A DNA stretch of 64,000 bases, taken from contig CM000155.2 in NCBI GenBank assembly GCA_000004695.1, forward strand, positions 1,920,001 through 1,984,000, in the 5' to 3' direction. This DNA comes from Dictyostelium discoideum. Its lineage: Eukaryota. The notes below the pieces were generated by a model that had not been told where the DNA came from, searched no databases, and saw only the letters and a list, made by a program, of their open reading frames with translations. A program made the position numbers and the translations under genes. This document shows positions 39,495 to 64,000 of this stretch, piece after piece (the stretch's first letter is position 1; the number at the start of each line of letters is the position of its first letter).

Positions 39495-42400
39495 TTAGTT
39501 TGTAACACCAAAATTTAAATCATATCTACTTGAAGCTATCATTGGATCTAAAATAAGAATATTTGAAATTGTTGCTTTTCCATTAACCATTGTTGCAGCG
39601 TTATAAGGAATAGATGAAGTTGGTAGAGGTGATGGAATAATTGAAAGTGTAACTGAATCAGCTGTAATAATATATTGTTGATTTTGGTATGGTGGATTAA
39701 TGAATTTAAATAGACCTAATGAATCGGTTGATTGTTTTTGAATTAAGGTACCATTGGCAAATAATAAACTAACGGCAACACCTTGTTTACCTTGCTCCCA
39801 TGGTTCTTGAATACCATTACCATTTGTATCAATAAAGACAATACTACCAAGGGTAATTGGTTTTGGAGAACAGTGGGCTACAAGTTGACCAAGACCCGAT
39901 GCTTTGCCAAAGGTAACTGGATTGACTGTATCTGAATTATCAGTGAGATAAACTTGGAATGAAGAACGAAGGGTACCATTGTTATTGTTATAAAATTTGA
40001 CTACACCTTCGAATACAGTTGTAGCATCGAATGAAGCTGATGCAACCTCTGGGAAACCTGGAACTTGGAAAACTGAAAGACCACCAGTATCATCATGACC
40101 AATTTGACCTTTTCTAAAGTTATCATTATAGAATTCACCAGTACCTGGACCTTCAATTTGACCTTTATAACCTGATGGACCTGTATGAGAACCAATAGCA
40201 CCACCACATTTACCATCTCTTTCTGGGACATAAACTCCATTGACCAAACAAATACGTAAAATATCTGGTGCCGATACGAAACTACCTTGATCACCTTCTC
40301 TATCTCTGATACCGATAACCATATCATTACCATCGAATGTAATTGATGCAACGACTGGTTGTGGATTGTCATCGATATCAATCCATGGTTGCCATGTACT
40401 GTTACGACAGACTGTATTTGAATCAAAATTCTTACAACCTCTGCTATAATTTAATGGTAGAGTGACAACCTTTGTGAAGACTTGAGTGACTGGATCAAAA
40501 GAGTGAATGATTGCATTCATATCTGGGATGGTTGGACCACCACAAACTGAACCTGTATAATATTTACCTTGATGGAAGTTGATTGCAAATGGTTGCCAGA
40601 AATATTTGTCTTGGGTTCTTGTACAACCAAATGGAACCGTAAATCTTTGAGTGTTTGTTTTATTTGGCTGAGTATCCAATGGCATTATAATAATATCACG
40701 GGTTTGTAAACCAACTACTGCCAAACTACGAGTGTATGGATTAATAACAATACCACCAAATGCTGTACGATAAATCTCTGAAATTCTAAAATCTGTATCT
40801 AAACTAATGTCCATACCTAAAATATCATCAGTACCTTCTGTATCTTTTTCAAGGAAAGAATCAATTCTAGTGTATAGTGAATTTCTACCGGTTACAGTAT
40901 CGATCTTATAGATTGCATTAAGACGTCCAGGGCCATAATCTGTACCAAACTTGGTGAATGCTGAGGCGTAAAGTTGTTTCTTACTACGATCATAGGCTAG
41001 ACCATAGGTTGTACCTGATTCATAATAGAAGGATAGTGGAGTGATTTGATTATGTTGAGTAGAATTGTATGGGAACATAACGATAACTGGTTCACCAGTG
41101 TTTGGACCATTTTCATCACTATTACCAATGACATAACAACCTACTGAAAGATTTGGTACATCATTACATGTTTCTTCATTGGTGATGAAAGAGAAATCTG
41201 CAAATCCTGCTGGAACGGTGTAGGTGTTTGGAAGAATTACTGAAGTTGGTCTACATGTTTCAACCTTATCGCCTGAACCAGTTGGAAGTGCTGGCGTACC
41301 TACTGTAATCAAATAATTACCATCTTGTACAAGATTAAAGAATGAATATGAACCGGTTGAATCTGTAAGAGTGGAGTTGAAAGGAGTCTTACTATCGGCA
41401 TAGTAAATATAAACTGGAATCTTTGAAAGTGGTATATCTTTAGCTGTACCAAATTGACCACTGATATCGTATTTACCGTTACAATTGTAATCTTTGAAAA
41501 CTCTACCAGTGACATTCTTAAGACTTGGTCTAATTACACCAAGATTAACTGGTTTACATTTATATTGAGAGAATGGACAAACTATATTATCATCATCATT
41601 TGCATCCAATGTAAACATTGTAGAATTAAAGGTACCCAATAATAAAGAGTTTGTTGGTGAGCCAGTTACATTGAATTTAGTTGTTAGCCAACCAGATCCT
41701 GATGGAGGAATCAAGGTGAGTGTATAATTACCAAGTTGAAGGTTTGGAATTGAGAAACTACCATTGGCTGCCACTGGTGAGGTTGCAACAACAGTACCAA
41801 TTGGAACTGTAGTTAAACCACCATTAACGGCTTGATTGGCAGATTTCAATTGAACAGTAAAGTTACCTGGTGGAACTGAACCCATTTCAAAGAGACCATC
41901 TTGTAAAACATCATTCCAAACGTAACCAAATACACCCATTGTAGTGAAAACAAAACCTGCATCATGAGTAGGGTCAAGGTATGGTGCTGTATATAAATTT
42001 GATTCATTATCAAATCTTGAACGAATATCGGATGATGTAATAATAAGATTAAATGCATCAGTTCTACCATTAGGGAATGCATTGTTTTCTACTTGATTTG
42101 ATGTTGACACTAATTTGGTTGGAGTGATTGAATAACCGGCTGGTATGACAAATTGAACGATATAATAACCTAAACGTACATTATCAATGTAATAGTAACC
42201 TTGAGAGTTTGATACTGCTTTCAATGGGTTACCATCTGAACCCATAACTGGTTGACCATTGTTATTTAAGAGAAGTACAGTAACATTTGGTAATGGTTTT
42301 TCATCAATATCAAAGATACCATTCTTGTTGGTATCAATAAAGGTTCTAACACCCAATGCAACATATGGGGTATTTATACCAACATTGGCTTTGTTGTACG

Positions 42401-45400
42401 CTTGTCTACAACGACTAACACTTGATACAGTTACTACATCTGGTCCTGGCATTGTGAATATTGGTGTTGTACGATTTAATGGGAAGAATCTATTGTTGAC
42501 TAAACCAGTAGTGGTGAAATTTGAAATGATATAACGAGGTGGAATTGAAACTGTCATATAGTAGGAACCTGGTGGAACGTTTGGAATTGAATATTTACCA
42601 TTTACATCTGTGACTGCCATTTGAATTGGTTTGCCGAAAATATCATTTGGAGTGGAACCATCTGCATTAAAGAGTGTAAGGTTTACATATGGGAAACCAA
42701 TTTCATTGATATCAAAGATACCATTGAGATTACCATCGGACCATGATTGTTGACCAATACTGTAACATGGGATTACAATACCTGCATCATTGTTTAGATT
42801 TTTCCAAGTATTTGATCCATAGGTTGTATCCAATGTAAAGTTATTCAAAACAATTACTTGACCGTTTGCTGTGGCTCTTGACATACCACCTGTCAAAATT
42901 GGTGAATAAGTAGTACCTGCAATATATTTGGTACTATTGGCAGGTATAGTTAATCTTACTACATAGGAAGGTCCACTTGATACATTTTGGAATAAATATT
43001 TACCATTGGCAGTTGTTACTTGACTTGAAATTGGTTTACCTAAAATATCCAATGCTGGTGAAAGATCTGAAGATACTAATAATTCAACTTTAATACCATC
43101 TGCACCAACTTCACCATTGTCTAATAGTGAATTATTATTTGAATCAATCCAAATAGTATCACCTAAATATATTTTTTTTTTTCATCAAATTATATTAAAA
43201 AAACAAATTATTAATAAAAATAAAAATTTTAATAAAAATAAAATTATATTTAAAAAAAATTTAATACTTTACCAATAATAAATGATTGTGGAACATAACC
43301 AACATTGAATGTATAATTCTTATTGAAAGCCTTGAGATTATCTGATGGAACTGTACGTAATGTATTATTATAAATTTCAATATCTAAACATAATGTATTA
43401 TTACCTTTTAAGAAATTATCTGGACCTGATATACCAAGTTGATAGGTTGGATTTGGTGGTATGAAAGTTAAACAATCGTTACCAGTTTCTAAATTATCAA
43501 AAATGTAGAAACCATTGGCATCAGTTTGTTTGGTCTTTGAACCAATTGAGATTGTAACATTTGCAATACCTGGTTCATCTACATCTTTCTTACCATTGTT
43601 GTTAATATCTAAGAATACAAATCTACCAATTGCTATCTTGGGTGGAACAATACCAAAGTCTTGATAGATATTGATATAGTTTGCTTTAAGATTCCAAGTT
43701 GAATCAATTAGCATAAGTGCTTTATCATTTTGACTGAGATCAATACTGATGTAACCAGTTGCATTTGCCTTGTTATCTTGAAGAGTATTATTGGAGATTG
43801 TAAAACCAACTGGTGGAGTAATTGCTAAATTGTAAACTCCTGGGTATAAATTATCGAAAATGTAGATACCACTTGGATTTGTTACGGTAGATGTTATAAA
43901 GTTAAAGTTACTATCATAAATTCTAACAGTAATACCTTCAACTGCAGGTTCATATGATTCAGCTCCACCATTACCATTCTTATCTACCCAAATATATGTT
44001 CCAACTGCATATTTGTATGGGGCTAAACCAAAATTAACAGTGGCATCTTGATAGGTATCTTCAGTATGACTTGGAATTGAGAATCTTTGAACGGTTGGAC
44101 TGAATACAGAGACATTGGTACAAGCAATAGCATTAGAATCACCTCTATTAAATGTTGTTGGAGTTAAGAGAGTTGGATAAAATTCTTTTGGTACAGTGAG
44201 TGAAACGCAATAATTTCCTGGAGCTAAATGGGTAAAGATGTATGTTCCATTGGCATCTGTTGTTGTTGTTGCAATGGTTTGTGATAGGTTAGAACCACTT
44301 CTTAAGAAAACTGTAATATTTGCCATACCCATTTCACTTGGTTGCATTTGACCATCTTTATTGTCATCATTGAAAACAATGAAACCAATACTCAAATATT
44401 CTGTGGTGAAACCAGCATCAATATTTCTATTAATATAATAAGTTGGTACTTTATCTGATGCAATCGATGCTGTAACATCTGGACTATTGATTCTAAGAGA
44501 AACTGATACACGTCCTCTACTGTTTACTTTAGATTGATCTGTTATTGGACTTGGTTTCAATTGTTTTGGATAACCAAATTGTACAACATAATCTCCTTGT
44601 TCAACATTAACGAAATGATAGATACCTTGTGAATCAGTGGTTGTGGTCATGAGAGTTGTATTGAATAAATTCAAAAGTCTAACGGTAATATTAACCAATG
44701 GAGTATCTTGGGCACTATCAAATAGACCATTTCCATTAACATCACGGAATACAAAGTCACCAATTGAAAAGATTGGTGGAATTAAACCACCATTAATATC
44801 ATTTCTACAAATTGGATCACCATAATTAATAGTGAAACAACTTAAACCTTGAGGGTTGAATACAGAGTCATTGGTTATCTTTGTCATTATATAGTTATCG
44901 ATAATGGATAAACTTACACAATAATTTCCAACAACTAAATTATCGAATCTATAATTTCCATTTACATCAGTTGTTGTAGTTTGAGTTGGTAAAGCGGTGT
45001 TATTTGGAGTAAGAGTAATGGTTAAGTTTCTATATGGTTCTTCGGTTGGTTCTGGATGACCATTACCGTTAATATCAATCCAAACATATTTACCAACACA
45101 ATAAAGTGGAACTAAACCGAGGTTTGCGTCATTTTTATTTCCAGATAGCGTGAAACAATATTGTTGTGTGTTTGAATCACCACCAATTGGTGAGAATGGT
45201 GAATCATTTGATTTTGTAACTGCTTTGAAATTTTGTGGAACTGATGCAGTTAAACAATAATTACCGGCTAATAATTGACCAAAACTATATTTACCTTGTG
45301 AGTTTGTTGTTGTTGTTTTTATTTCTGAGTTTCCAGTGTTAACAAGAGAAAGAGAAACATTTGCTTGAAGTGGATCATCTAAATCTTTAATACCATTATT

Positions 45401-48400
45401 AAGTTTATCAATCCAAACATTATCACCTAATGTATAGAATGGAGTTAAACCTACATTGACATTAGTTAAATTGGTAGCATTAACATTGAAACAATATGTT
45501 GTTACATTTTTAGAGGTTGATAAAATAAATGGAGAGTCTAAAGATGTATTTACAAATTTGTAAAGTGCAGAATTAATTGGACCTGCGCTCATACAATAGT
45601 TACCTGGTGCAACATCAACAAATTGGTAGAATCCATTTGCGTTTGTAATGGTTGAATTGATTTGTTTTCCTTGTGAATCTAAAAGTGTCATGGTAATGTT
45701 TGGAACACCAGCCGATGTTGGTAAACGTTTACCAGTATTTAATGGATCTAACCAAGCTGTATCACCAACAGTCAAAAGTGGAGTGAGACCAAGGTTGGCA
45801 TTAGTAATTGATGATGTTGTAAGGTCGAAACAATAGATTGTACTCTTGTTAAATGGTGAATCTTGAGATTGAATAACTTGTTGATAGTGTGGTGGAATAA
45901 TCATCTTGATACAATATGATCCTGGTACTTGATCTTTAAATGCGTACTTACCGTTTTCATCTGTAATTGTGTTGGCAATGGAAGTTCCATTTGGTGAGAA
46001 CAATGAAACTGAAACACCTGGTAATAATGGTTCATCTAATTCTTTAATACCATTATTATTCTTTTCGATCCAAACATATTGACCAATATCAAGTGTTGAT
46101 ACGAAACCTGGATTAACATTAGTGTTGTTATATGGTATATGACCATTTAATCTAACACAATACTGACCATTAATGAATGGAGAATCTTTGCTACCTGTTA
46201 CTGGAATTGTACCTAATGGAGTTGTTGCATTGAGACAATATTTACCCATTAATAATGGATAGAACATGTAGTTACCATTAATATCTGTTTTGGTTGTTTC
46301 TATAACATTTCCTAGTGGGTCAATAAGTGATAATTCTACATCGGAAAGGAATTCATTATCTTGTCTCTTTCCATCGTTATTAATATCTAACCAAGCAATA
46401 TAACCAACTCCAAATATAGTATCCAAACCAAGGTTAACATCTGACATATCACCAAATAATGGGAAACAAAAACCACCTGTAGAGTTGGTAACTGAATCAT
46501 CAGAGTCGACAACAACAATATATCCTGGTGGAACTTCAAATTGAACACAATAGTCTGCACTTGGTAATAAATTAGGTACAACATAGCCACCTTTATCATC
46601 AGATCTTGTAGCAGCTAAAATGTTTCCACTTACCTTGTCATATAATTGTACTGTTACATTTGGAAGAAGTAGATCACTAGATGAAAGGAATTTTGATAAA
46701 TCTAAATCGACCCATGTTGTACCATCGACCACAAGGTATGGAATCAAACCAATATTGGCATTCAATACATTAGAATCTGTGACTGCGAAACAATATTGAA
46801 GTTCTGCTAATGGATTAGTTGGAGATGTATCAGTGAAGTTTTTGAATGGCGATACTTCAGAATATGAATCTGCTAAATAATTGGATGGTACTGTAGCTCT
46901 TACGCAATAACTACCTGGTTGTATATCATTGAATTGATATTTACCAGAAGAGTTGGTAATAGTTGTTTCAATTAAATTACCATTGTTATCATAGAGAGAC
47001 ATTGTTACATTTGGTACCAATAATGAATCATTTCTACGAACTCCATTATTTAAATTATCTAACCATGCATCAGAACCAATATTATAAAGTGGAATTAAAC
47101 CTAAATTGGCATTTGTAATTGATTTATCAAGTAAATCGAAACAATATTTGACATCTGAATCGAATGGAGAGTCTTTTGATTGTGCAACTTGTTCATAGTG
47201 TGGTGGAATAACCATTTGTACACAATATGATCCTGGTACTTGATCTTTTAATGCATATTTACCATTTTCATCTGTTACAAGATTGGCAATTGATGTTCCA
47301 TTTGGTGAGAAAATATGAATTTGTATGCCTGGTAATAATGGTTCATCTGATTCTTCTTTACCATTGTTATTCTTATCGATCCAAACATATTGACCAATAT
47401 CGAGTGTTGGTACAAAACCTGGATTGACATCAGTTCTATCAATTGGTTGTGGTCCTGTGAATGTTAAACAATATTTATTATTGACAAAGAGATTATCTGA
47501 ACTACCAGTAACTGGAATTGAACCTATTGGAGTTGTTGCAATGATACAATAATCACCTTGTGGAAGGTTATCAAATTTGTAATTACCTGATTCATTGGTT
47601 GTTGTAGTTTGTAATACTTTACCATTTGAATCTTGTAATGATAACTCTACACCTGGTAAGAACTCATTGTCTTCTTTATTACCATTATTATTCTTATCTA
47701 ACCATGATACTGATCCGATACTATTGAGTGGAGAAATACCAATATTGATATTTGGATTTGATTGTGTTAATAAGAAACAATATTTACCTGTTGTTTGGTC
47801 AACAACTGAGTCTTTTGATGGTTGTACGAAATGATATTTAATTGGAGTTGTTGTTTCAATACAATAATTGCCTGGTAATAAATGGTCAAAGTGGTAGTTT
47901 CCATTTGAATCTGTTTGTGTAGTAGATGATTGACCTGATCCAGTATTGGTAAGTTTAATTTGGAATTCTGATTTACCAACATCAACTGGTTTATCGTAGA
48001 CATTGTTATTATTTGAATCAATCCAAACAATAGTTCCAATTTTAAGTAATGGAATTAAACCAAGATCTTGATTATCTGTTGGTCCACTAACTGTGAAACA
48101 TGATTCAACATCTGATTGGGAAGATAATGAAAATGGTGAGTCTGAAGATTTGTTAACTGGGGAATAATCCGAAGGAACAGATACTTTGATACAATAATCG
48201 CCTGGCTCAACATCATCGAATTGATATTTACCAATATCGTCAGTTGGAATTGATTTAATAATTGTATTTCCATTTTTATCAGTAAGTGTTAATACAATAT
48301 TTGGAATACCTGGGGAATTTTCTAATTGAATACCAGTGTTGAATGAATCTAACCAAACAGTATCACCAATTGGATAAAGTGGAATTAAACCAAGATTGGC

Positions 48401-51400
48401 GTTTGCAATTGATTTATCTACTAAATCGAAACAATATTTGACATCTGAATCGAATGGTGAATCTTCTGATTGTGCAACTTGTTTATAATGATCTGGAATA
48501 ACCATTTGTACACAATATGGTCCTGGTACTTGATCTTTTAATGCGTATTTACCATTTTCATCTGTTACAAGATCTGCGATCTTAGTTCCATTTGGTGATG
48601 TGATAATAACTTGAACACCTGGTAATAATGGTTCATCTGGTTCTTCTTTACCATTGTTATTCTTATCGATCCAAACATATTGACCAATATCGAGTGTTGA
48701 TACAAAACCTGGATTGACATCAGTTCTATCGATTGGTTGTGGTCCTGTGAATGTTAAACAATATTTATTATTGACAAATAGATTATCTGGACTGCTTGTT
48801 ACTGGAATTGAACCGATTGGAGTTGTTGCGACGATACAATAATCACCTGGTAATAAATTATCAAATTTGTAATTACCTGATTCATCAGTTGTTGTTGTAT
48901 CTAATACTTTGCCACTTGGATCTTGTAATGATAACTCTACACCTGGTAAGAATTCATTATCTTCTTTCTTACCATTATTATTTTTATCTAACCATGATAC
49001 TGATCCGATACTATTGAGTGGTACTAAACCGATATTGATATTTGGATTTGATTGTGTTAATTTGAAACAATATTCACCTGTTGAGTCGACAACTGAATCA
49101 TCTGAAGTTACAACAAATTGGTATTGATCTGGTTGTGTTACTTTGATACAATAATCACCTGCTAATAAATGATTGAAATTATAGTTACCATCAACATCTG
49201 TTTGAATTGTTGATGTTTCACCATTACCACTGTTGGTTAATGTAATTGATACATCTGATTTACCGATATCACTTGGTTGTTCAAACTTATCATTGTTATT
49301 TGAATCAATCCAAACAATGGTACCGATTTCATAGAATGGTGATAAACCTAAGTTTTGATTATCTAATGGTCCTGAAACTTTGAAGCATGATTTAACAATT
49401 GATTCATTCGAAGTTGGAGAGAATGGTGAATCTGATGATGTATTGACTGCTTGATAGGTATCACTTGGAAATTCTGCTTCAATACAATAATCACCTGGTG
49501 GAACATCTTCGAATTGATATTTACCATCTGGTCCTGAAGTTGTTGATTGAATAACTTTATCATCTTTATCGACTAAATTTAATTCAATACCTTCGACACC
49601 TGGTGAATCATCAGTACGTTTACCAGTATTGAACGGATCTAACCAAACACTATCACCAATTGGATAAAGTGGAATTAAACCAAGATTGGCGTTTGTAATT
49701 GATGTATCTACTAAATCGAAACAATATTTGACATCTGAATCGAATGGTGAATCTTCTGATTGTGCAACTTGTTTATAATGATCTGGAATAATCATTTGTA
49801 CACAATATGATCCTGGTACTTGATCTTTTAATGCATATTTACCATTTTCATCTGTTACAAGATTGGCAATTGATGTTCCATTTGGTGATGTGATAATAAC
49901 TTGAACACCTGTTAATAATGGTTCATCTGATTCTTCTTTACCATTGTTATTCTTATCGATCCAAACATATTGACCAATATCGAGTGTTGATACAAAACCT
50001 GGATTGACATCAGTTCTATCGATTGGTTGTGGTCCTGTGAATGTTAAACAATATTTATTATCGACAAAGAGATTGTCTGGACTACCAGTAACTGGAATTG
50101 AACCGATTGGAGTTGTTCCGACGATACAATAATCACCTGGTAATAAATTATCAAATTTGTAATTACCTGATTCATCAGTTGTTGTTGTTGTATCTAATAC
50201 TTTACCATTTGAATCTTGTAATGATAATTCTACACCTGGTAAGAATTCATTGTTTTCTCTCTTACCATTATTATTCTTATCTAACCATGATACTGATCCG
50301 ATACTATTGAGTGGTACTAAACCGATATTGATATTTGGATTTGATTGTGTTAATTTGAAACAATATTCACCTGTTGAGTCGACAACTGAATCATCTGAAG
50401 TTACAACAAATTGATATTTATTTGGTTCTGTTGCTTTGATACAATAATCACCTGCTAATAAATGATTGAAATTGTATTCCCCATCAGCATCTGTTTGAAT
50501 TGTTGATGTTTCACCATTACCACTGTTGGTTAATGTAATTGATACATCTGATTTTTTAATATCACTTGGTTGTTCAAACTTATCATTGTTATTTGAATCA
50601 ATCCAAACAAATGTACCGATTTCATAGAATGGAGTAACACCAATTGGTGGTTTGACATCATGATCAGTGATTGTGAAACAATATTTAACTGTGACGAAAC
50701 TATCATTTGTTGAATCAGCCGAGAATGGTGAATCTGATGATGTATTGACTGGTTTGTATTGATCTTTTGGAATATCAGCTTCAACACAATAATCACCTGG
50801 TGGAACATCTTCGAATTGATATTTACCATCTGGTCCTGATTTGGTGTTTGTAATTTCATTTCCATCTTTATCAGTTAATCTAATTGTAATGTCTGATAAT
50901 GGTGGTGAATCATCAGTTTGTTTACCAGTATTGAATGGATCTAACCAAACTTTATCACCAACGTTGAATAATGGAATTAAACCAAGATTGGCATTTGTAA
51001 TTGATTTATCTACCAAATCGAAACAATATTTGACATCTGAATCGAATGGTGAGTCTTCTGATTGTGCATCTTGTTTATAATGTGGTGGAATAACCATTTG
51101 TACACAATATGATCCTGGTACTTGATCTTTTAATGCATAATTACCATTTTCATCTGTTACAAGATCTGCGATCTTAGTTCCATTTGGTGATGTGATAATA
51201 ACTTGAACACCTGGTAATAATGGTTCATCTGGTTCTTCTTTACCATTGTTATTCTTATCGATCCAAACATATTGACCAATATCGAGTGTTGATACAAAAC
51301 CTGGATTGACATCATATCTATCGATTGGTTGTGGTCCTGTGAATGTTAAACAATATTTATTATTGACAAATAGATTGTCTGGACTACCAGTAACAGGGAT

Positions 51401-54400
51401 TGAACCGATTGGAGTTGTAGCGACAATACAATAATCACCTGGTAATAATTCGTAAAATAGGTAATAACCTGATTCATCGGTTGTTGTTGTTTCAAATAAA
51501 GTACCATTTGGATCTTGTAATGATAATTCTACACCTGCTAATGATTCTCCAGCAGTTGCTAAACCATCATTATCTTTATCTAACCAAGCGAATGTTCCGA
51601 TACTATTGAGTGGTACTAAACCGATATTGATATTTGGATTTGATTGTGTTAATTTGAAACAATATTCACCTGTTGAATTTACAACTGAATCATCTGAAGT
51701 TACAACAAATTGATATTTATTTGGTTCTGTTACTTTGATACAATAATCACCTGCTAATAAATTATTGAATTTGTAATTACCATTTGAGTCTGTTTGAATT
51801 GTTGATGTTTCACCATTACCACTGTTGGTTAATGTAATTGATACATCTGATTGTTTAATATCACTTGGTTGTTCAAACTTATCATTGTTATTTGAATCAA
51901 TCCAAACAAATGTTCCGATTTCGAGGAATGGAATTAAACCAAGATTGGCATTGTTAACTGGCTCTGTAACTGTGAAACAATATCTAGATTTAATTGGTTC
52001 AATCGAAGAAGTTGGGAGTGGAAGAACTACCGAGAATGGTGAATCTGATGAGGTATTTTCTACTTGATATTTTCTTGGGACAGATGCTTCAATACAATAA
52101 TCGCCTGGTGGAACATCTTCGAATTGATATTTACCATTTGGTCCTGATGCAGTTGATTGAATTGAATTTCCGTATTTATCAATGAGTGTGAGTGGAATAC
52201 CTTCTACTCCTGGTGAATCATCAGTACGTTTACCAGTATTGAATGGATCTAACCAAACACTATCACCAAGGTTGTAAAGTGGAACTAAACCAAGATTTGC
52301 GTTTGTAATTGATTTATCTTCTAAATCGAAACAATATTTGACATCTGAATCGAATGGTGAATCTTCTGATTGGTTAACTTGTTTATAATGATCTGGAATA
52401 ATCATTTGTACACAATATGATCCTGGTACTTGATCTTTTAATGCATATTTACCATTTTCGTCTGTAAAAAGATTGGCAATTGATGTTCCATTTGGTGATG
52501 TGATAATAACTTGAACACCTGGTAATAATGGTTCATCTGGTTCTTCTTTACCATTGTTATTCTTATCGATCCAAACATATTGACCAATATCGAGTGTTGG
52601 TACAAAACCTGGATTGACATCAGTTCTATCGATTGGTTGTGGTCCTGTGAATGTTAAACAATATTTATTATTGACAAAGAGATTGTCTGGACTACCAGTA
52701 ACTGGAATTGAACCGATTGGAGTTGTTCCGACGATACAATAATCACCTGGTAATAAATTATCAAATTTGTAATTACCTGATTCATCGGTTGTTATTGTTT
52801 GTAATACAGTGCCATTTGGATCTTGTAATGATAATTCTACACCTTCTAATGATTCTTCAGCAGTTGCTAAACCATCATTATCTTTATCTAACCAAGCGAA
52901 TGTTCCGATACTATTGAGTGGTACTAAACCGATATTGATATTTGGATTTGATTGTGTTAATTTGAAACAATATTCACCTGTTGAGTCGACAACTGAATCA
53001 TCTGAAGTTACAACAAATTGATATTTATTTGGTTCTGTTGCTTTGATACAATAATCACCTGCTAATAAATGATTGAAATTGTATTCACCATCAGCATCTG
53101 TTTGAATTGTTGATGTTTCACCATTACCACTGTTGGTTAATGTAATTGATACATCTGATTTTTTTATATCACTTGGTTGTTCAAACTTATCATTGTTATT
53201 TGAATCAATCCAAACAAATGTACCGATTTCATAGAATGGAGTAACACCAATTGGTGGTTTGACATCATGATCAGTGATTGTGAAACAATATTTAACTGTG
53301 ACGAAACTATCATTTGTTGAATCAGCCGAGAATGGTGAATCTGATGATGTATTGACTGGTTTGTATTGATCTTTTAGAATATCAGCTTCAACACAATAAT
53401 CACCTGGTGGAACATCTTCGAATTGGTATTTACCATCTGGTCCTGATTTGGTGTTTGTAATTTCATTTCCATCTTTATCAGTTAATCTAATTGTAATGTC
53501 TGATAATGGTGGTGAATCATCAGTTTGTTTACCAGTATTGAATGGATCTAACCAAACTTTATCACCAACGTTGAATAATGGAATTAAACCAAGATTGGCA
53601 TTTGTAATTGATTTATCTACCAAATCGAAACAATATTTGACATCTGAATCGAATGGTGAGTCTTCTGATTGTGCATCTTGTTTATAATGTGGTGGAATAA
53701 CCATTTGTACACAATATGATCCTGGTACTTGATCTTTTAATGCATAATTACCATTTTCATCTGTTACAAGATCTGCGATCTTAGTTCCATTTGGTGATGT
53801 GATAATAACTTGAACGCCTGGTAATAATGGTTCGTCTGATTCTTCTTTACCATTGTTATTCTTATCGATCCAAACATATTGACCAATATCAAGTGTTGAT
53901 ACAAAACCTGGATTGACATCATATCTATCGATTGGTTGTGGTCCTGTGAATGTTAAACAATATTTATTATTGACAAATAGATTATCTGGACTGCTTGTTA
54001 CTGGAATTGAACCGATTGGAGTTGTTGCAACGATACAATAATCGCCTGGTAATAAATTATCAAATTTGTAATTACCTGATTCATCAGTTGTTGTTGTTTC
54101 TAATACTTTACCATTTGAATCTTGTAATGATAACTCTACACCTGGTAAGAATTCATTGTCTTCTTTATTACCATTATTATTCTTATCTAACCATGATACT
54201 GATCCGATACTATTGAGTGGTACTAAACCGATATTGATATTTGGATTTGATTGTGTTAATTTGAAACAATATTCACCTGTTGAGTCGATAACTGAATCAT
54301 CTGAAGTTACAACAAATTGGTATTGATCTGGTTGTGTTGCTTTGATACAATAATCACCTGCTAATAAATGATTGAAATTATAGTTACCATCAACATCTGT

Positions 54401-57400
54401 TTGAATTGTTGATGTTTCACCATTACCACTGTTGGTTAATGTAATTGATACATTTGATTTTCCGATATCACTTGGTTGTTCAAATTTATCATTGTTATTT
54501 GAATCAATCCAAACAATGGTACCGATTTCATAGAATGGTGATAAACCTAAGTTTTGATTATCTAATGGTCCTGAAACTTTGAAGCATGATTTAACAATTG
54601 ATTCATCTGAAGTTGGAGAGAATGGTGAATCTGATGATGTATTGACTGGTTTGTATTGATCATTTGGAATTGTTGCTTCAATACAATAATCACCTGGTGG
54701 AACATCTTCGAATTGATATTTACCATCTGGTCCTGATGTTGTTGATTGAATAACTTTACCATCTTTATCGACTAAATTTAATTCAATACCTTCTACACCT
54801 GGTGAATCATCAGTACGTTTACCAGTATTGAATGGATCTAACCAAACAGTATCACCAATTGGATAAAGTGGAATTAAACCAAGATTGGCATTTGTAATTG
54901 ATTTATCTACCAAATCGAAACAATATTTGACATCTGAATCGAATGGTGAGTCTTCTGATTGTACAACTTGTTTATAATGTGGTGGAATAACCATTTGTAC
55001 ACAATATGGTCCTGGTACTTGATCTTTTAATGCATAATTACCATTTTCATCTGTTACAAGATCTGCGATCTTAGTTCCATTGGGTGATGTGATAATAACT
55101 TGAACACCTGGTAATAATGGTTCATCTGATTCTTCTTTACCATTGTTATTCTTATCGATCCAAACATATTGACCAATATCGAGTGTTGATACAAAACCTG
55201 GATTGACATCAGTTCTATCGATTGGTTGTGGTCCTGTGAATGTTAAACAATATTTATCATCTACAAAGAGATTATCTGGACTGCTTGTTACTGGAATTGA
55301 ACCGATTGGAGTTGTTGCAACGATACAATAATCACCTGGTAATAAATTATCAAATTTGTAATTACCTGATTCATCGGTTGTTGTTGTATCTAATACTTTA
55401 CCATTTGAATCTTGTAATGATAATTCTACACCTGGTAAAAATTCATTATCTTCTTTATTACCATTATTATTCTTATCTAACCATGATACTGATCCGATAC
55501 TATTGAGTGGTACTAAACCGATATTGATATTTGGATTTGATTGTGTTAATTTGAAACAATATTCACCTGTTGAGTCGACAACTGAATCATCTGAAGTTAC
55601 AACAAATTGATATTTATTTGGTTCTGTTACTTTGATACAATAATCACCTGCTAATAAATGATTGAAATTATAGTTACCATCAACATCTGTTTGAATTGTT
55701 GATGTTTCACCATTACCACTGTTGGTTAATGTAATTGATACATCTGATTTTTTTATATCACTTGGTTGTTCAAAGTTATCATTGTTATTTGAATCAATCC
55801 AAACAAATGTACCGATTTCATAGAATGGAGTAACACCAATTGGTGGTTTGACATCATGATCAGTGATTGTGAAACAATATTTAACTGTGACGAAATTATC
55901 ATTTGTTGAATCGACTGAGAATGGTGAATCTGATGATGTATTGACTGGTTTGTATTGATCTTTTAGAATATCAGCTTCAACACAATAATCACCTGGTGGA
56001 ACATCTTCGAATTGATATTTACCATCTGGTCCTGATTTGGTGTTTGTAATTTCATTTCCATCTTTATCAGTTAATCTAATTGTAATGTCTGATAATGGTG
56101 GTGAATCATCAGTTTGTTTACCAGTATTGAATGGATCTAACCAAACTTTATCACCAACTTTGAATAATGGAATTAAACCAAGATTGGCATTTGTAATTGA
56201 CTCATCGATTAAATCGAAACAATATTTGACATCTGAATCGAATGGTGAGTCTTCTGATTGTGCAACTTGTTTATAATGTGGTGGAATAACCATTTGTACA
56301 CAATATGATCCTGGTACTTGATCTTTTAATGCATAATTACCATTTTCATCTGTTACAAGATCTGCGATCTTAGTTCCATTGGGTGATGTGATAATAACTT
56401 GAACACCTGGTAATAATGGTTCATCTGATTCTTCTTTACCATTGTTATTCTTATCGATCCAAACATATTGACCAATATCGAGTGTTGATACAAAACCTGG
56501 ATTGACATCATATCTATCGATTGGTTGTGGTCCTGTGAATGTTAAACAATATTTATCGTCGACAAATAGATTATCTGGACTGCTTGTTACTGGAATTGAA
56601 CCGATTGGAGTTGTTGAGACGATACAATAATCACCTGGTAATAAATTATCAAATTTGTAATTACCTGATTCATCGGTTGTTGTTGTATCTAATACTTTAC
56701 CATTTGAATCTTGTAATGATAATTCTACACCTGGTAAAAATTCATTATCTTCTTTATTACCATTATTATTCTTATCTAACCATGATACTGATCCGATACT
56801 ATTGAGTGGTACTAAACCAATATTGATATTTGGATTTGATTGTGTTAATTTGAAACAATATTCACCTGTTGAGTTGACAACTGAATCATCTGAAGTTACA
56901 ACAAATTGGTATTGATCTGGTTGTGTTACTTTGATACAATAATCACCTGCTAATAAATGATTGAAATTATAGTTACCATCAACATCTGTTTGAATTGTTG
57001 ATGTTTCACCATTACCACTGTTGGTTAATGTAATTGATACATTTGATTTTCCGATATCACTTGGTTGTTCAAATTTATCATTGTTATTTGAATCAATCCA
57101 AACAATGGTACCGATTTCATAGAATGGTGATAAACCTAAGTTTTGATTATCTAATGGTCCTGAAACTGCGAAACATGATTTAACGATTGATTCATCTGAA
57201 GTTGGAGAGAATGGTGAATCTGATGATGTATTGACTGCTCGTAAGATATCATTTGAAATTGTTGCTTCAATACAATAATCACCTGGTGGAACATCTTCAA
57301 ATTGATATTTACCATTTGGTCCTGAAGTTGTTGATTGAATAACTTTACCATCTTTATCGACTAATTGTAATTCAATACCTTCGAGACCTGGTGAATCATC

Positions 57401-60400
57401 AGTACGTTTACCAGTATTGAATGGATCTAACCAAACAGTATCACCAATTGGATAAAGTGGAACTAAACCGAGATTTGCGTTTGTAATTGATTCATCGATT
57501 AAATCGAAACAATATTTGACATCTGAATCGAATGGTGAGTCTTCTGATTGTGCAACTTGTTTATAATGTGGTGGAATAATCATTTGTATACAATATGATC
57601 CTGGTACTTGATCTTTTAATGCATAATTACCATTTTCATCTGTTACAAGATCTGCGATCTTAGTTCCATTGGGTGATGTGATAATAACTTGAACACCTGG
57701 TAATAATGGTTCATCTGATTCTTCTTTACCATTGTTATTCTTATCGATCCAAACATATTGACCAATATCGAGTGTTGATACAAAACCTGGATTGACATCA
57801 TATCTATCAATTGGTTGTGGTCCTGTGAATGTTAAACAATATTTATCATCAACAAATAGATTATCTGGACTGCTTGTTACTGGAATTGAACCGATTGGAG
57901 TTGTTGCGACGATACAATAATCACCTGGTAATAAATTATCAAATTTGTAATTACCTGATTCATCAGTTGTTGTTGTTTCTAATACTTTACCATTTGAATC
58001 TTGTAATGATAATTCTACACCTGGTAATGATTCTCCCTCACTTGCTAAACCATCATTATCTTTATCTAGCCATGCGAACGATCCGATACTATTGAGTGGT
58101 ACTAAACCAATATTGATATTTGGATTTGATTCTGTTAATTTGAAACAATATTCACCTGTTGAGTTGACAACTGAATCATCTGAAGTTACAACAAATTGGT
58201 ATTTATTTGGTTCTGTTGCTTTGATACAATAATCACCTGCTAATAAATGATTGAAATTATAGTTACCATCAACATCTGTTTGAATTGTTGATGTTTCACC
58301 ATTACCACTGTTGGTTAATGTAATTGGAACATCTGATTGTTTAATATCACTTGGTTGTTCAAACTTATCATTGTTATTTGAATCAATCCAAACAAATGTT
58401 CCGATTTCGAGGAATGGAATTAAACCAAGATTGGCATTGTTAACTGGCTCTGTAACTGTGAAACAATATCTAGATTTAATTGGTTCAATTGAAGAAGTTG
58501 GGAGTGGAAGAACTACCGAGAATGGTGAATCTGATGAGGTATTTTCTACTTGATATTTTCTTGGGACAGATGCTTCAATACAATAATCACCTGGTGGAAC
58601 ATCTTCGAATTGATATTTACCATTTGGTCCTGATGCAGTTGATTGAATTGAATTTCCGTATTTATCAATGAGTGTTAGTGGAATACCTTCTACACCTGGT
58701 GAATCATCAGTACGTTTACCAGTGTTGAATGGATCTAACCAAACAGTATCACCAAGGTTGTAAAGTGGAACTAAACCAAGATTTGCGTTTGTAATTGATT
58801 TATCTTCTAAATCGAAACAATATTTGACATCTGAATCGAATGGTGAGTCTTCTGATTGTGAAACTTGTTTATAATGATCTGGAATAATCATTTGTACACA
58901 ATATGATCCTGGTACTTGATCTTTTAATGCGTATTTACCATTTTCATCTGTTACAAGATCTGCGATCTTAGTTCCATTTGATGATGTGATAATAACTTGA
59001 ACACCTGGTAATAATGGTTCATCTGATTCTTCTTTACCATTGTTATTCTTATCGATCCAAACATATTGACCAATATCAAGTGTTGATACAAAACCTGGAT
59101 TGACATCAGTTCTATCGATTGGTTGTGGTCCTGTGAATGTTAAACAATATTTATTATTGACAAATAGATTATCTGGACTGCTTGTTACTGGAATTGAACC
59201 GATTGGAGTTGTTGCAACGATACAATAATCACCTGGTAATAAATTATCAAATTTGTAATTACCTGATTCATCGGTTGTTGTTGTATCTAATACTTTACCA
59301 TTTGAATCTTGTAATGATAATTCTACACCTGGTAAAAATTCATTGTCTTCTTTCTTACCATTATTATTCTTATCTAACCATGATACTGATCCGATACTAT
59401 TGAGAGGTACTAAACCAATATTGATATTTGGATTTGATTCTGTTAATTTGAAACAATATTCACCTGTTGAGTCGACAACTGAATCATCTGAAGTTACAAC
59501 AAATTGATATTTATTTGGTTCTGTTGCTTTGATACAATAATCACCTGCTAATAAATGATTGAAATTATAGTTACCATCGACATCTGTTTGAATTGTTGAT
59601 GTTTCACCATTACCACTGTTGGTTAATGTAATTGATACATCTGATTTTTTTATATCACTTGGTTGTTCAAACTTATCATTGTTATTTGAATCAATCCAAA
59701 CAAATGTACCGATTTCATAGAATGGAGTAACACCAATTGGTGGTTTGACATCATGATCAGTGATTGTGAAACAATATTTAACTGTGACGAAATTATCATT
59801 TGTTGAATCGACTGAGAATGGTGAATCTGATGATGTATTGACTGGTTTGTATTGATCTTTTGGAATATCAGCTTCAACACAATAATCACCTGGTGGAACA
59901 TCTTCGAATTGGTATTTACCGTCTGGTCCTGATTTAGTGTTTGAATTTTCATTTCCATCTGGTCTTGATTTGGTTTTTGTAATTTCATTTCCATCTTTAT
60001 CAGTTAATCTAATTGTAATGTCTGATAATGGTGGTGAATCATCAGTTTGTTTACCAGTATTGAATGGATCTAACCAAACTTTATCACCAACGTTGAATAA
60101 TGGAACTAAACCAAGATTGGCATTTGTAATTGATTTGTCGTCTAAATCGAAACAATATTTGATATCTGAATCGAATGGTGAGTCTTCTGATTGTGAAACT
60201 TGTTTATAATGTGGTGGACTAACCATTTGTACACAATATGATCCTGGTACTTGATCTTTTAATGTGTATTTACCATTTTCATCTGTTACAAGATTGGCAA
60301 TTGATGTTCCATTTGGTGATGTGATAATAACTTGAACACCTGGTAATAATGGTTCATCTGATTCTTCTTTACCATTGTTATTCTTATCGATCCAAACATA

Positions 60401-63400
60401 TTGACCAATATCGAGTGTTGATACAAAACCTGGATTGACATCAGTTCTATCGATTGGTTGTGGTCCTGTGAATGTTAAACAATATTTATCATCAACAAAT
60501 AGATTATCTGGACTGCTTGTTACTGGAATTGAACCGATTGGAGTTGTTACAACGATACAATAATCGCCTGGTAATAAATTATCAAATTTGTAATTACCTG
60601 ATTCATCAGTTGTTGTTGTATCTAATACTTTACCATTTGAATCTTGTAATGATAATTCTACACCTGGTAAAAATTCATTATCTTCTTTATTACCATTATT
60701 ATTCTTATCTAACCATGATACTGATCCGATACTATTGAGTGGTACTAAACCAATATTGATATTTGGATTTGATTGTGTTAATTTGAAACAATATTCACCT
60801 GTTGAGTCGACAACTGAATCATCTGAAGTTACAACAAATTGATATTTATTTGGTTCTGTTGCTTTGATACAATAATCACCTGCTAATAAATGATTGAAAT
60901 TGTATTCACCGTCAACATCTGTTTGAATTGTTGATGTTTCACCATTACCACTGTTGGTTAATGTAATTGATACATCTGATTTTCCAATATCACTTGGTTG
61001 TTCGAATCTATCATTGTTATTTGAATCAATCCAAACAATGGTACCGATTTCATAGAATGGAGTAACACCAATTGGTGGTTTGACATCATGATCAGTGATT
61101 GTGAAACAATATCTAACTGTGACGAAATTATCATTTGTTGAATCGACTGAGAATGGTGAATCTGATGATGTATTGACTGGTTTGTATTGATCTTTTGGAA
61201 TATAAGCTTCAACACAATAATCACCTGGTGGAACATCTTCGAATTGGTATTTACCATCTGGTCCTGAAGTTGTTGATTGAATAACTTTACCATCTTTATC
61301 AGTTAATCTAATTGTAATGTCTGATAATGGTGGTGAATCATCAGTTTGTTTACCAGTATTGAATGGATCTAACCAAACTTTATCACCAACTTTGAATAAC
61401 GGAACTAAACCAAGATTGGCATTTGAAATTGATTCATTGACTAAATCGAAACAATATTTGACATCTAAATCGAATGGTGAGTCTTCTGATTGTGCAACTT
61501 GTTTATAATGTGGTGGAATAATCATTTGTACACAATATGATCCTGGTACTTGATCTTTTAATGTGTATTTACCATTTTCATCTGTTACAAGATTGGCAAT
61601 TGATGTTCCATTTGGTGATGTGATAATAACTTGAACACCTGGTAATAATGGTTCATCTGGTTCTTCTTTACCATTGTTATTCTTATCGATCCAAACATAT
61701 TGACCAATATCGAGTGTTGATACAAAACCTGGATTGACATCAGTTCTATCGATTGGTTGTGGTCCTGTGAATGTTAAACAATATTTATTATTGACAAATA
61801 GATTATCTGGACTGCTTGTTACTGGAATTGAACCGATTGGAGTTGTTGTGACAATACAATAATCACCTGGTAATAAATTATCAAATTTGTAACTACCTGA
61901 TTCATCGGTTGTTGTTGTATCTAATACTTTACCATTTGAATCTTGTAATGATAATTCTACACCTGGTAAAAATTCATTGTCTTCTTTCTTACCATTATTA
62001 TTCTTATCTAACCATGATACTGATCCGATACTATTGAGTGGTACTAAACCGATATTGATATTTGGATTTGATTGTGTTAATTTGAAACAATATTCACCTG
62101 TTGAGTCGACAACTGAATCATCTGAAGTTACAACAAATTGGTATTGATCTGGTTGTGTTGCTTTGATACAATAATCACCTGCTAATAAATGATTGAAATT
62201 ATAGTTACCATCAACATCTGTTTGAATTGTTGATGTTTCACCATTACCACTGTTGGTTAATGTAATTGATACATCTGATTTTAAAACATCACTTGGTTGT
62301 TCGAATTTACCATTGTTATTTGAATCAATCCAAACCATGGTACCAATTTCATAGAATAGTGATAAACCTAAGTTTTGATTGTCTAATGGTCCTGAAACTG
62401 CGAAACATGATTTAACGATTGATTCATCTGAAGTTGGAGAGAATGGTGAATCTGATGATGTATTGACTGGTTTGTATTGATCATTTGGAATTGTTGCTTC
62501 AATACAATAATCACCTGGTGGAACATCTTCGAATTGATATTTACCATCTGGTCCTGATGTTGTTGATTGAATGACTTTGCCATCTTTATCGACTAATTGT
62601 AATTCAATACCTTCGACACCTGGTGAATCATCAGTACGTTTACCAGTATTGAATTGATCTAACCAAACAGTATCACCAATTGGATATAATGGGATTAAAC
62701 CAAGATTGGCATTTGTAATTGACTCATCGATTAAATCGAAACAATATTTGACATCTGAATCGAATGGAGATTCTTCTGATTGTGCAACTTGTTTATAATG
62801 ATCTGAAATAATCATTTGTACACAATATGATCCTGGTACTTGATCTTTTAATGCGTATTTACCATTTTCATCTGTTACAAGATCTGCGATCTTAGTTCCA
62901 TTTGATGATGTGATAATAACTTGAACACCTGGTAATAATGGTTCATCTGGTTCTTCTTTACCATTGTTATTCTTATCGATCCAAACATATTGACCAATAT
63001 CAAGTGTTGATACAAAACCTGGATTGACATCAGTTCTATCGGTTGGTAGTGGTCCTGTGAATGTTAAACAATATTTACCATCGACAAATAGATTATCTGG
63101 ACTGCTTGTTACTGGAATTGAACCGATTGGGGTTGTTGCAGAAATACAATAATCACCTGGAAGTAAATTATCAAAGTAATAGTTACCATCGGAATCTGTT
63201 GTTATTGTTTGAATAACAATACCATTTGGATCTTGTAATGATAATTCTACACCTGGTAAAAATTCATTGTCTTGTCTCTTACCATCATTATTCTTATCTA
63301 ACCATGATACTGATCCGATACTATTGAGTGGTACTAATCCAATATTGATATTTGGATTTGATTCTGTTAATTTGAAACAATATTCACCTGTTGAGTCGAC

Positions 63401-64000
63401 AACTGAATCATCTGAAGTTACAACAAATTTGTATTGATCTGGTTCTGTTACCTTGATACAATAATCACCTGCTAATAAATGATTGAAATTGTATTCACCG
63501 TCAGTATTGGAGATTGTTGAATACATTTCACCATTACCACTGTTGGTTAATGTAATTGATACATTTGATTTTCCGATATCATTTGGTTGTTCAAACTTAT
63601 CATTGTTATTTGAATCAATCCAAACAATGGTACCGATTTCATAGAATGGTGATAAACCTAAGTTTTGGTTATCTAATGGTCCTGAAACTGCGAAACATGA
63701 TTTAACAATTGAATTATCTGAAGTTGGAGAGAATGGTGAATCTGATGATGTATTAACTGATTGATAGGTATCATTTGGAATTGTTGCTTCAATACAATAA
63801 TCACCTGGTGGAACATCTTCGAATTGATATTTACCATCTGGCCCTGATGTTGTTGATTGAATAACTTTACCATCTTTATCGACTAATTGTAATTCAATAC
63901 CTTCGAGACCTGGTGAATCATCAGTACGTTTACCAGTATTGAATGGATCTAACCAAACAGTATCACCAATTGGATATAATGGAATTAAACCAAGATTGGC
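39495..64000 (-). CDS. Giant colossin-like protein, at least 8000 aa in this window. The N-terminus lies beyond coordinate 64000. Exons are >64000..43273 (repeat array) and 43162..39495 (unique C-terminal ~1220 aa). Dictyostelium colossin A is the nearest family I recall.
   Basis: The frame of the 6758-aa ORF stays open to the window edge. The M at 63526 is an internal Met. Donor G|GTAAAG at 43272 and acceptor TTTAG|GT at 43163 give split codon G|GT and splice ...PQSFIIG to DTIWIDSNNN..., which reproduces the repeat motif (PIGDTVWLD). Repeated modules carry LPGVxVxLxDxNGxxIxTTxTDxxGxYxFxxLxPGDYC, typical of Cna B-type / SdrD B-like beta-sandwich domains. Confidence 0.8.
43300..64000 (-). repeat. 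Coding tandem repeat array. There are at least 16 units of ~1290-1303 bp (about 430 aa, 5 modules each) at about 90-99% nucleotide identity, and the array continues past the window edge.
   Basis: Out-of-frame ORF copies recur with a fixed period, for example MLLELNRLELL... at 48796, 50098, 52708, 53995, 55240, 56539, 57829, 59182 and 60472. Identical 79-aa copies occur at 50841, 53448 and 56037. The protein units are near-identical (PFYEIGTIVWIDSNNNDKFEQPSDI...). Confidence 0.9.

Follow-up and report, generated by a model that had tools for sequence, protein, structure and literature searches.

Does a giant coding tandem array in Dictyostelium discoideum carry a second level of repeat organisation, in which blocks of five units were copied together? 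The question arises in a 64,000-nt stretch of DNA, analysed here at its full length and referred to as the window, where a first-pass annotation had singled out two plus-strand open reading frames (ORFs) with partners further along the strand and had read them as the mark of a 6.5-kb block duplicated en bloc. These ORFs are antisense, out-of-frame shadow ORFs and not genes. From its sequence, the flagged region is the centre of a giant extracellular-type repeat-protein gene on the minus strand, encoding tandem β-sandwich domains of bacterial ancestry (Table 1). The minus-strand ORF at 43250..63526 encodes 6758 aa and the same frame is still open at position 64000, so the gene extends 5′ past the window edge. 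Within the exon the open frame runs for 20.7 kb to that edge without a stop or frameshift, and GC content is ~32% in the large exon compared with ~20% in its flanks. After splicing, the reading frame runs on without a stop for 8131 aa in the window, and the gene product is therefore at least 8131 aa long; 68 SdrD_B/CnaB-like domains were counted in these 8131 aa with a custom HMM. Searched against a single unit of the array, the Pfam family SdrD_B (PF17210) matched in four stretches and scored 221.9 bits (cut-off 29.7; E = 1.7e-66). In the assembly GCA_054883475.1 the gene product is 9785 aa, a length that would place ~1654 aa more of the array product beyond the window. A 784-aa gene neighbouring the array also marks the locus on the 2.2-Mb contig of that assembly.

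The array is built from super-repeats of ~1.3 kb, with a copy number of at least 13 in the window. Tandem Repeats Finder, with a maximum period of 500, is blind to this period. Each super-repeat contains four domains (D1-D2-D3-D4). The 12 units of the core (U1 to U12) are 1290–1335 nt long, every unit length is a multiple of three, and identity among them is 83–97% at the nucleotide level. Toward the 3′ edge the array degenerates, with U13 at 78–82% nucleotide identity to the core and U14 at ~63%. Domains at different positions within a unit share 34–38% of their amino acids, and domains at the same position in different units share 88–92% for D2 to D4 and 74% for D1. The true higher-order unit consists of four diverged domains, one level below the five-unit block proposed in the first-pass annotation. 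The order D2-D3-D4-D1 is conserved in P0149, an orthologue from another dictyostelid assembly. D1 occurs in three old subtypes that have been kept in the array, with pS ~0.34 between types, while D2 to D4 are held at pS ~0.10–0.15 across units. In gene order from U1 to U12 the D1 subtypes are a a b b c a b a b c b a. The regular alternation of two unit subtypes with a 2.6-kb period that had been described for this array is found in U6 to U9 and does not extend to the order as a whole. D3 also varies, with f-type copies 89–93% identical to one another and v-type copies (U2–U4, U6–U8 and U12) 96–98% identical.

Table 1 Coordinates of the features in the window.
Feature	Position	Strand	Partner, further copies or basis
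Overlapping shadow ORFs, 80 and 63 aa	51825..52185	+	Partners at 58311-58671; inside minus-strand coding exon
Large exon of giant SdrD_B/CnaB-repeat (colossin-type) gene	43273..64000	-	Frame open to window edge
Intron	43163..43272	-	GTAAAG...TTTAG; in-frame splice ...FIIG to DTIWIDSNNN (sequence read)
3′ exon, diverged SdrD_B domains and C-terminal region, to stop codon	39495..43162	-	
Homogenised core, 12 super-repeats U1-U12, each D1-D2-D3-D4	48368..63967	-	Unit table; identity, informative-site and per-domain matrices
Degenerating 3′ edge units U13 and U14	45767..48367	-	Identity values per unit
c cassette copy 1, end of U4 D4 and U5 c-type D1	58275..58951	-	blastn tract against 51789-52465
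c cassette copy 2, end of U9 D4 and U10 c-type D1	51789..52465	-	blastn tract against 58275-58951
Full in-register similarity (≥90%) at lag 6486	50968..53481	-	U10 and U9 against U5 and U4 at 57454-59967
f-type D3 variant (FAWLDKDNDGLA) in U5	57764..58084	-	Further copies in U9 (52586-52906) and U10 (51278-51598)
Tandem two-unit (a+b, 2589 nt) duplication	52869..58041	-	52869-55452 against 55458-58041
Most similar tract, end of U10 and start of U11	50262..51436	-	Matches 52869-54043 (end of U8 and start of U9), lag 2607

Both pairs of shadow ORFs are indeed exactly 6486 nt apart, and this distance is exactly five units (U5 to U9, encoding 436 + 430 + 433 + 430 + 433 aa). The paired ORFs had been called identical but are near-identical, with DNA differences at 3 of 243 and 2 of 192 nucleotides and peptide differences at 1 of 80 and 2 of 63 residues. 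The sole segment specific to the 6486-nt lag is a 677-nt island, the c cassette, with 97.9% identity by blastn between flanks that are 90.7–93.0% identical (Fisher P = 4e-7). Around it the two regions stay in register for ~2.5 kb at 93.9% overall identity, and not for 6.5 kb, and the longest exact repeat at this lag is 212 nt. Windows of 243 columns with three or fewer differences occur at unit lags 1–8 and 10, in 30 of the 66 unit pairs; lag 5 shows no excess of them, with a share of 4.3% compared with 3.8–7.3% for lags 1–6. Because near-matching windows are found at many lags, the ORF pair is not distinctive. The 6486-nt match stems from two copies of a rare ~0.7-kb c-type D1 cassette in a recombination-scrambled array. 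A further claim, that divergent variant modules recur with the same spacing, stands for the c-type D1 (VPRKYQVENTSS...), which is present twice, at a distance of five units (U5 and U10); it does not stand for the f-type D3 (SFAWLDKDNDGLA), which is present three times, in U5, U9, and U10. Four units lie between the c cassettes (a b a b), including a tandem two-unit duplication, and taking out that duplication leaves the cassettes three units apart. A by-product, arising as three plus two units or from one conversion tract, may thus be all that the five-unit spacing represents, and two c cassettes, the full number in the window, are too few to establish a period.

The two-unit duplication is the strongest multi-unit tract in the array. 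Its copies align by blastn over 1745 nt at 97.65% identity and, taken over their full length, over 1788 nt at 96.8% and 801 nt at 94.8%, with in-register similarity spanning 52193-58428. The most similar tract of all joins the end of U10 and the start of U11 to the end of U8 and the start of U9, with 1089 nt at 99.2% identity (blastn), and holds the longest exact repeat of the region (between 350 and 400 nt, with starts at 50820/53427). High-identity tracts that cross unit boundaries are present at lags of 2, 3, 4, 5, and 6 units. Together with the 2589-nt duplication, these tracts bear out the earlier suggestion that the array has experienced multi-unit exchange and not just single-unit slippage. 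Divergence is 2.07% for the c-cassette duplication and 2.35% for the a-b duplication, but where gene conversion acts identity does not keep time, and the order of the two events cannot be read from these values. A three-unit ancestor of the form (b c a) ×2 with later conversion of U11 was considered and rejected, as the rest of U11 has no affinity to U6. The blastn end-points shared by several tracts (52904, 55493, 59390...) were likewise rejected as recombination hot spots, since they coincide with the start of the variable D3 region.

Along the length of every unit, nearest-neighbour maps show the nearest relative switching. The PHI statistic is 0.299, where permutation gives a mean of 0.524 (P < 0.0005), and among informative site pairs 49.6% cannot be fitted to one tree. 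The units are mosaics for which no single tree exists. In the orthologue P0149, D2 and D3 of copies 1 and 2 share 72–80% of their amino acids, above the 60–65% of the best cross-species match, a paralogue-versus-orthologue comparison that rests on one other species; the same pattern is less marked in D1 and D4, and fails for the third, more diverged copy of P0149. The best reading of the array is concerted evolution, with unequal exchange and gene conversion as its means, and the decay of the edge units U13 and U14 fits this reading. The pattern suggests that misaligned units pair and that homologous exchange keeps the copies evolving together, with unequal crossing-over duplicating or deleting whole numbers of units and gene conversion, in tracts mostly of 1 kb or less, homogenising the copies. 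We regard the explanation as a whole, comprising a colossin-type array, concerted evolution, a match due to the c cassette, and no five-unit period, as highly probable.

An alternative is that five units were once duplicated en bloc (U1–U5 to U6–U10, or the reverse) and that conversion and the two-unit duplication have since overprinted the event, leaving as remnants the c cassette, the ends of U4 and U9, and the likeness of U1 and U6. Mean identity at lag 5 is 90.5%, compared with a grand mean of 88.9%, and is second only to lag 4 at 90.65%. None of the permutation tests over unit lags was significant, with P = 0.11 uncorrected and 0.56 family-wise for lag 5. The lag-5 partner ranks first for D1 and D2 of the pair U1/U6 and for D1 of the pair U5/U10, and second for D1, D2, and D4 of the pair U4/U9, but in the per-domain matrices, where an en bloc copy was expected to appear as block structure, just 4 of the 28 domain comparisons have it as nearest neighbour. 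The longest run over which the nearest neighbour stays at lag 5 is ~600 nt. Comparison of block 51825-57514 with 58311-64000 gives 90.8% identity, the best for that block among lags 1–5 (the others give 87.4–89.1%), but by our estimate the c cassette alone contributes roughly this small excess, and neighbouring blocks shifted by two units are 91.4–91.7% identical. When the D1 subtypes are aligned in fives (aabbc against ababc, then ba), three of five positions agree, which is close to chance: about 2.2 matches among seven pairs would be expected from the type frequencies, again by estimate. The collapse of the c spacing to three units on removal of the two-unit duplication also counts against an old five-unit copy. 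A five-unit higher-order repeat, or an en bloc five-unit duplication, is thus not supported by the unit comparisons; that an old event of this size left a weak trace is conceivable, given that U1 and U6 are nearest neighbours in D1 and D2, and we judge such an overprinted duplication unlikely.

Mis-joined or duplicated reads in a 16-kb array of 83–97% identical units could also produce near-identical segments or a mosaic order. Arrays of this kind are hard to assemble: a draft contig of a related species breaks off inside the array, and short-read Logan contigs (L001 and L002) are confined to 41112-44170, ending at the array edge. Metagenome scans found no array in other strains, and homologue searches to the same end yielded no repeat fragments resembling those of D. 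discoideum. The coding sequence at 39495-49121 is 100% identical in the independent 2.2-Mb NCBI contig of GCA_054883475.1, which covers U13, U14, and part of U12 and leaves 49122-64000 to a single assembly. An exact assembly duplication was rejected because no exact repeat reaches 400 nt. The private substitutions in each unit, the intact frame, and the unit lengths in multiples of three also speak against an artefact, which we consider very improbable. Still less probable is a functionally selected periodicity, in which c and f modules would sit at fixed spacing owing to a structural super-period like the super-repeats of titin and nebulin. The retention of three old D1 types is consistent with such selection, as is the strong protein conservation of the c-type D1 pair (pN/pS 0.06, with pS 0.06 and pN 0.004), although this ratio rests on very few substitutions; but two copies of c define no period, the f-type D3 copies are spaced by one, four, and five units, and neither a nor b recurs periodically. 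That the c-type modules, with or without the f-type, follow a real five-unit period that continues 5′, with a further c-type unit five upstream of U5, also seems most doubtful; if true, it would constitute a second-order higher-order repeat in a coding gene, or a selected structural super-period of the colossin filament.

With concerted evolution as the preferred reading, the region is an ordinary finding, the expected footprint of that process in a very long coding tandem array. The 6.5-kb "duplicate" adds no new organisational level to the repeat, and the finding is of limited importance. What is useful is a clean gene model and unit map of a colossin-type gene, showing the four-domain super-repeat, the three old D1 subtypes, and the decay at the 3′ edge. 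The analysis also cautions that plus-strand ORFs here merely shadow the real gene in antisense, and it provides an example of expansion by multi-domain blocks, together with homogenisation over short tracts, in a gene family believed to have come from bacteria. Strain-to-strain variation in copy number or unit order is likely, and could alter the length of an extracellular structural protein.

The domains themselves resemble those of known surface proteins. An AF2 model of U5 D1 (pLDDT 91.2, pTM 0.83) predicts a seven-strand prealbumin-like β-sandwich like the B domains of SdrD, and its top PDB matches by Foldseek are SdrD A2-A3-B1-B2 (10ps), SdrD (8vdk, 4jdz), UafA (3irp), and CnaB2 (8bdw). 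A loop with the consensus G-x-x-V-W-L-D-x-N-N-N-G-K, in which W5 and D7 are nearly invariant, has a putative Ca2+-binding role. Each domain has two nearly invariant cysteines that are common to other dictyostelid homologues, and both are missing in the two bacterial homologues inspected. The closest relatives include dictyostelid homologues (Acytostelium proteins and P0149), bacterial SdrD_B proteins are ~25–30% identical, and a protein search of a representative library returned only relatives, at no more than 44% identity. With the B-domain stalks of staphylococcal SdrD, SdrG, and UafA (PDB 4jdz, 10ps, 3irp) the array shares its fold (Foldseek TM 0.68–0.74, probability 1.00), a sequence match to SdrD at E = 5e-19, the W-x-D-x-N-N-N-G loop motif, and the tandem arrangement of domains. 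In contrast, the window holds 68 domains where staphylococcal Sdr proteins have 2–5, and the A-region, SD repeat, and LPXTG anchor of those proteins are not seen here.

ColA of Dictyostelium discoideum has been described as containing hundreds of Cna_B repeats of bacterial origin (PMC3188802), and the colossins (ColA-D) as giant slug proteins of Cna_B/SdrD_B repeats with that origin (PMC3188802, PMC4334915). The gene described here is likewise giant, lies in an AT-rich genome, and consists almost wholly of SdrD_B/CnaB-like domains; we assign it to this group of giant dictyostelid proteins by its architecture and the published description. The colossin papers speak of "hundreds of repeats" without mention of a four-domain super-repeat or a mosaic (PMC3188802, PMC4334915). 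Higher-order repeats of the alpha-satellite type are resembled at the step from domain to four-domain unit, where diverged monomers form a unit repeated at much higher identity, but the present sequence is coding and kept in frame, and the five-unit level fails the defining test of such repeats, as copies one period apart are not the most similar. Expansion of domain repeats by multi-domain blocks is known from the seven-domain super-repeats of nebulin and from titin (Bjorklund, Ekman and Elofsson 2006, PMC1553488). Compared with those cases, homogenisation is much stronger here, with 83–97% nucleotide identity and a conversion mosaic, and the array lies within a single exon, so that exon shuffling is not involved. 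As in those proteins, the array has grown by several domains at once, in units of four domains and a tandem duplication of eight, and its middle copies are the most similar while its edges have diverged.

The repeats belong to a colossin-type gene on the minus strand, a member, to judge by its domain make-up, of an already described gene family. The frame of its 6758-aa ORF stays open up to the window edge at 64000, and an intron splices this large exon in frame to a second exon, so the window carries the last 8131 aa of the gene and the 5′ end lies outside. Each unit of 1290-1335 nt encodes four domains, D1 (111-126 aa), D2 (106 aa), D3 (107 aa), and D4 (106 aa). Domains at the same position in different units share 88-92% amino acid identity in D2-D4 and 74% in D1, compared with 34-38% between different positions, and the genuine higher-order repeat is therefore the step from a single domain to a four-domain super-repeat. 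In gene order, the core units U1-U12 are followed by U13 (about 80% DNA identity), U14 (about 63%), and then single domains of growing divergence. Three D1 haplotypes, a, b, and c, follow one another along the gene as a a b b c a b a b c b a. With pS of ~0.34 between types and 0.05-0.09 within a type, the three D1 types are old; over all units, D2-D4 have pS of 0.10-0.15 and pN/pS of 0.4-0.65. A variant D3, type f (FAWLDKDNDG...), is present in U5, U9, and U10. An in-frame insertion of 12 aa (NEITKTKSRPDGNENSNTKSGPDG vs NEITNTKSGPDG) in D1 is peculiar to U4; it resembles a small internal duplication and brings that unit to 445 aa. Within the core, U1 diverges most, with 83-92% identity to the other units and 79-91% in D2 and D3, and the homogenised core may end, on its 5′ side, near this unit.

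The first-pass annotation had proposed that a 6.5-kb block of five units was copied en bloc, citing two pairs of ORFs. These four ORFs are on the plus strand within the minus-strand coding exon and are antisense shadow ORFs. Their spacing of 6486 nt is exact and equals U5 through U9 (2162 aa), but the pairs described as identical are near-identical, with 3/243 and 2/192 nt and 1/80 and 2/63 aa differing. Nor is such a match distinctive: of the 66 unit pairs, 30 contain windows of 243 columns with three or fewer differences. These pairs span lags (distances counted in units) of 1-8 and 10, and lag 5 is not enriched. At exactly 6486 nt, identity of at least 90% extends only across 50968-53481 (U10 and U9 against U5 and U4), 2.5 kb at 93.9%. 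Within it, only a 677-nt island (51789-52465 vs 58275-58951) is special, with 97.9% identity against 90.7-93.0% in its flanks (Fisher P=4e-7); the island consists of the c-type D1 and the last ~200 nt of the D4 before it. The identity of U4 with U9 (94.4%) is below that of U4 with U7 (97.1%), U11 (96.0%), and U3 (95.2%). Mean unit identity at lags 1-6 is 88.3, 89.0, 87.3, 90.7, 90.5, and 89.5%; with unit order permuted, lag 5 gives P=0.11 and the best lag a family-wise P of 0.56, and no lag is significant in nearest-neighbour lag counts. A domain has its lag-5 partner as nearest neighbour in 4 of 28 cases, and the longest stretches of constant nearest-neighbour lag, about 900 columns for lag 2 and about 600 for lag 5, fall short of a full unit. 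The proposed block, 51825-57514 against 58311-64000, aligns globally at 90.8%. Shifted by one to four units it aligns at 87.4-89.1%, and neighbouring blocks at a two-unit shift reach 91.4-91.7%. By our estimate, one matched c-type D1 (~70% identical to a and b over 351 nt) explains most of the block's 1.7-3.4-point excess. An en bloc copy recent enough to leave 98-99% identity in the ORFs would show ~98% across the whole block.

The units are mosaics. An informative-site matrix shows haplotype blocks along the unit that are common to differing sets of units, single-tree incompatibility affects 49.6% of informative site pairs, and a PHI-type permutation test gives P<0.0005. High-identity tracts that cross unit boundaries are found at many lags (see table). 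The lag-2589 tract adjoins its own copy, with in-register similarity over 52193-58428, about 2.4 periods, and the longest exact repeat of the region (350-400 nt) sits in the lag-2607 tract. The flagged interval reads essentially as c / a b a b / c, a tandem two-unit duplication bracketed by two c cassettes, rare ~0.7-kb segments with a c-type D1. Without the two-unit duplication the spacing of the c cassettes would be three units. Divergence is indistinguishable for the c cassette and the two-unit duplication (2.07% vs 2.35%), so either event may have come first. The original observation is partly confirmed and its interpretation partly supported. The c-type module (VPRKYQ...) does recur at exactly 6486 nt, but the FAWLD module is also in U9; a and b do alternate with a 2.6-kb period, but only in U6-U9; and exchange in a multi-unit register is supported, but a five-unit higher-order repeat or an en bloc 6.5-kb duplication is not.

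Features of the window, with the D1 haplotypes and the boundary-crossing tracts of the array
Feature	Position or units	Strand	Remark
6758-aa ORF	43250-63526	-	
Intron GTAAAG...TTTAG	43272..43163	-	
Second exon	43162..39495	-	
U1-U12	63967 down to 48368	-	83-97% DNA identity
U1	62678-63967	-	
U4 D1	59711-60088	-	
Domains with cysteine pair	39495-64000	-	
D1 haplotype a	U1, U2, U6, U8, U12		
D1 haplotype b	U3, U4, U7, U9, U11		
D1 haplotype c	U5, U10		
Tract, lag 2589 nt	2 units apart		1745 nt, 97.65%
Tract, lag 2607 nt	2 units apart		1089 nt, 99.2%
Tract, lag 3897 nt	3 units apart		1281 nt, 96.9%
Tract, lag 5199 nt	4 units apart		1511 nt, 97.0%
Tract, lag 6486 nt	5 units apart		677 nt, 97.9%
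Tract, lag 7821 nt	6 units apart		1571 nt, 95.4%
tRNA-Gly(GCC)	7239-7310	-	unrelated to the array
tRNA-Met(CAT)	28217-28288	-	unrelated to the array
CCDC93-like	20179-21723	+	unrelated to the array
TRAPPC8-like	23897-26716	+	unrelated to the array
Dihydrouridine synthase	30247-31338	+	unrelated to the array
Trinucleotide runs (ATA, TAA, TTA; 36-58 copies) and 81-nt tandem duplicate	4578-4755, 6454-6571, 14253-14359, 15063-15223		

The window is very AT-rich: its GC content is 17-31% up to 40 kb and about 31-37% thereafter. Its trinucleotide runs look like the homopolymer-amino-acid tracts typical of an AT-rich genome, and the long ORFs at 4136-6739 and 14546-17563, which hold several of them, have no Pfam match. 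The 784-aa gene adjoining the array is also found on a 2.2-Mb NCBI contig (GCA_054883475.1), where the colossin-like product next to it has 9785 aa; from this length, the gene should extend past the window by ~1650 aa (at most about 3.8 units), and by extrapolation it would occupy roughly 1,105,000-1,135,200 of the contig. On the same contig, the stretch L004 (JBTAPE010000034.1:1125483-1147837) matches window 49121-26696 at 99.65%, with every difference outside the colossin coding part; the coding sequence of 39495-49121 shows 100% identity. Two Logan short-read contigs (L001 and L002; SRR26869266 and SRR28564543) share 99.6% identity with window 41112-44170. Past 41112 (L001 3060-3278; L002) both diverge: 21 nt are deleted, mismatches become more frequent, and an early stop is followed by AT-rich sequence that is non-coding. 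The product called from them has 687 aa, and the frame of the window's 3′ exon runs well past that point. This divergence could reflect a structural variant, a truncated paralogue, or a chimeric contig.

It is very unlikely that the repeated segments are an assembly artefact, given that an independent assembly is identical over the shared 3′ part (up to ~49 kb), that the array contains no long exact duplicates, that every unit has private substitutions, and that the reading frame is intact. Somewhat less improbable, although still unlikely, is that five units were duplicated long ago and that later events overprinted the copy: U1-U6 and U4/5-U9/10 show a weak lag-5 affinity. This duplication has no statistical support. 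A structural period maintained by selection would be deduced from two copies only, and we consider it scarcely credible.

A single 436-aa unit matches Pfam SdrD_B in four stretches (E=1.7e-66), and a profile built from the repeats themselves identifies 68 domains in the 8131 aa. The AlphaFold model of a c-type D1 (pLDDT 91) has structural matches to the B domains of S. aureus SdrD, S. saprophyticus UafA, and a CnaB2 domain, and a PDB sequence search matches SdrD at E=5e-19. Every domain has two nearly invariant cysteines (G-D-Y-C ... Y-C-F; C58 and C97 in U5 D1, alignment A1). Homologues from Acytostelium and other dictyostelids also have both cysteines, whereas the two bacterial SdrD_B proteins inspected, from Duganella (P0029) and Staphylococcus (P0137), lack them, which points to a dictyostelid-specific intradomain disulfide.

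In the representative library, the best-scoring relative is an orthologue from another dictyostelid (P0149, GCA_000277445.1; 3208 aa, 44% identity), whose 12-kb contig (L005, AJWJ01000641.1) starts within the array. The orthologue contains the order D2-D3-D4-D1 three times, as in the window, followed by counterparts of the U15 domains, and the four-domain unit is therefore older than the species split. In D2 and D3, its copies 1 and 2 share 72-80% identity, which exceeds the highest value between species, 60-65% (mean 54-61%); the pattern is less distinct in D1 and D4, and the third copy is more diverged. Judged from this one other species, the copies are at least partly homogenised, or were amplified, within each lineage, the signature of concerted evolution.

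The likely source of this pattern is homologous recombination between misaligned 1.3-kb units. Unequal sister-chromatid or interhomologue exchange would gain or lose whole units, as in the two-unit duplication, and gene conversion would copy tracts of up to 1 kb between units any distance apart. The diverged D1 types may persist because divergence limits heteroduplex formation there, or through selection, whereas the array edges (U13, U14, and U1 at 83-92%) escape homogenisation. In domain-repeat proteins generally, several domains are added per expansion and the newest duplications lie mid-array (PMC1553488). The array in the window behaves in this way and adds one more case to a known kind, the multi-domain super-repeat that evolves in concert, here in a family already described.
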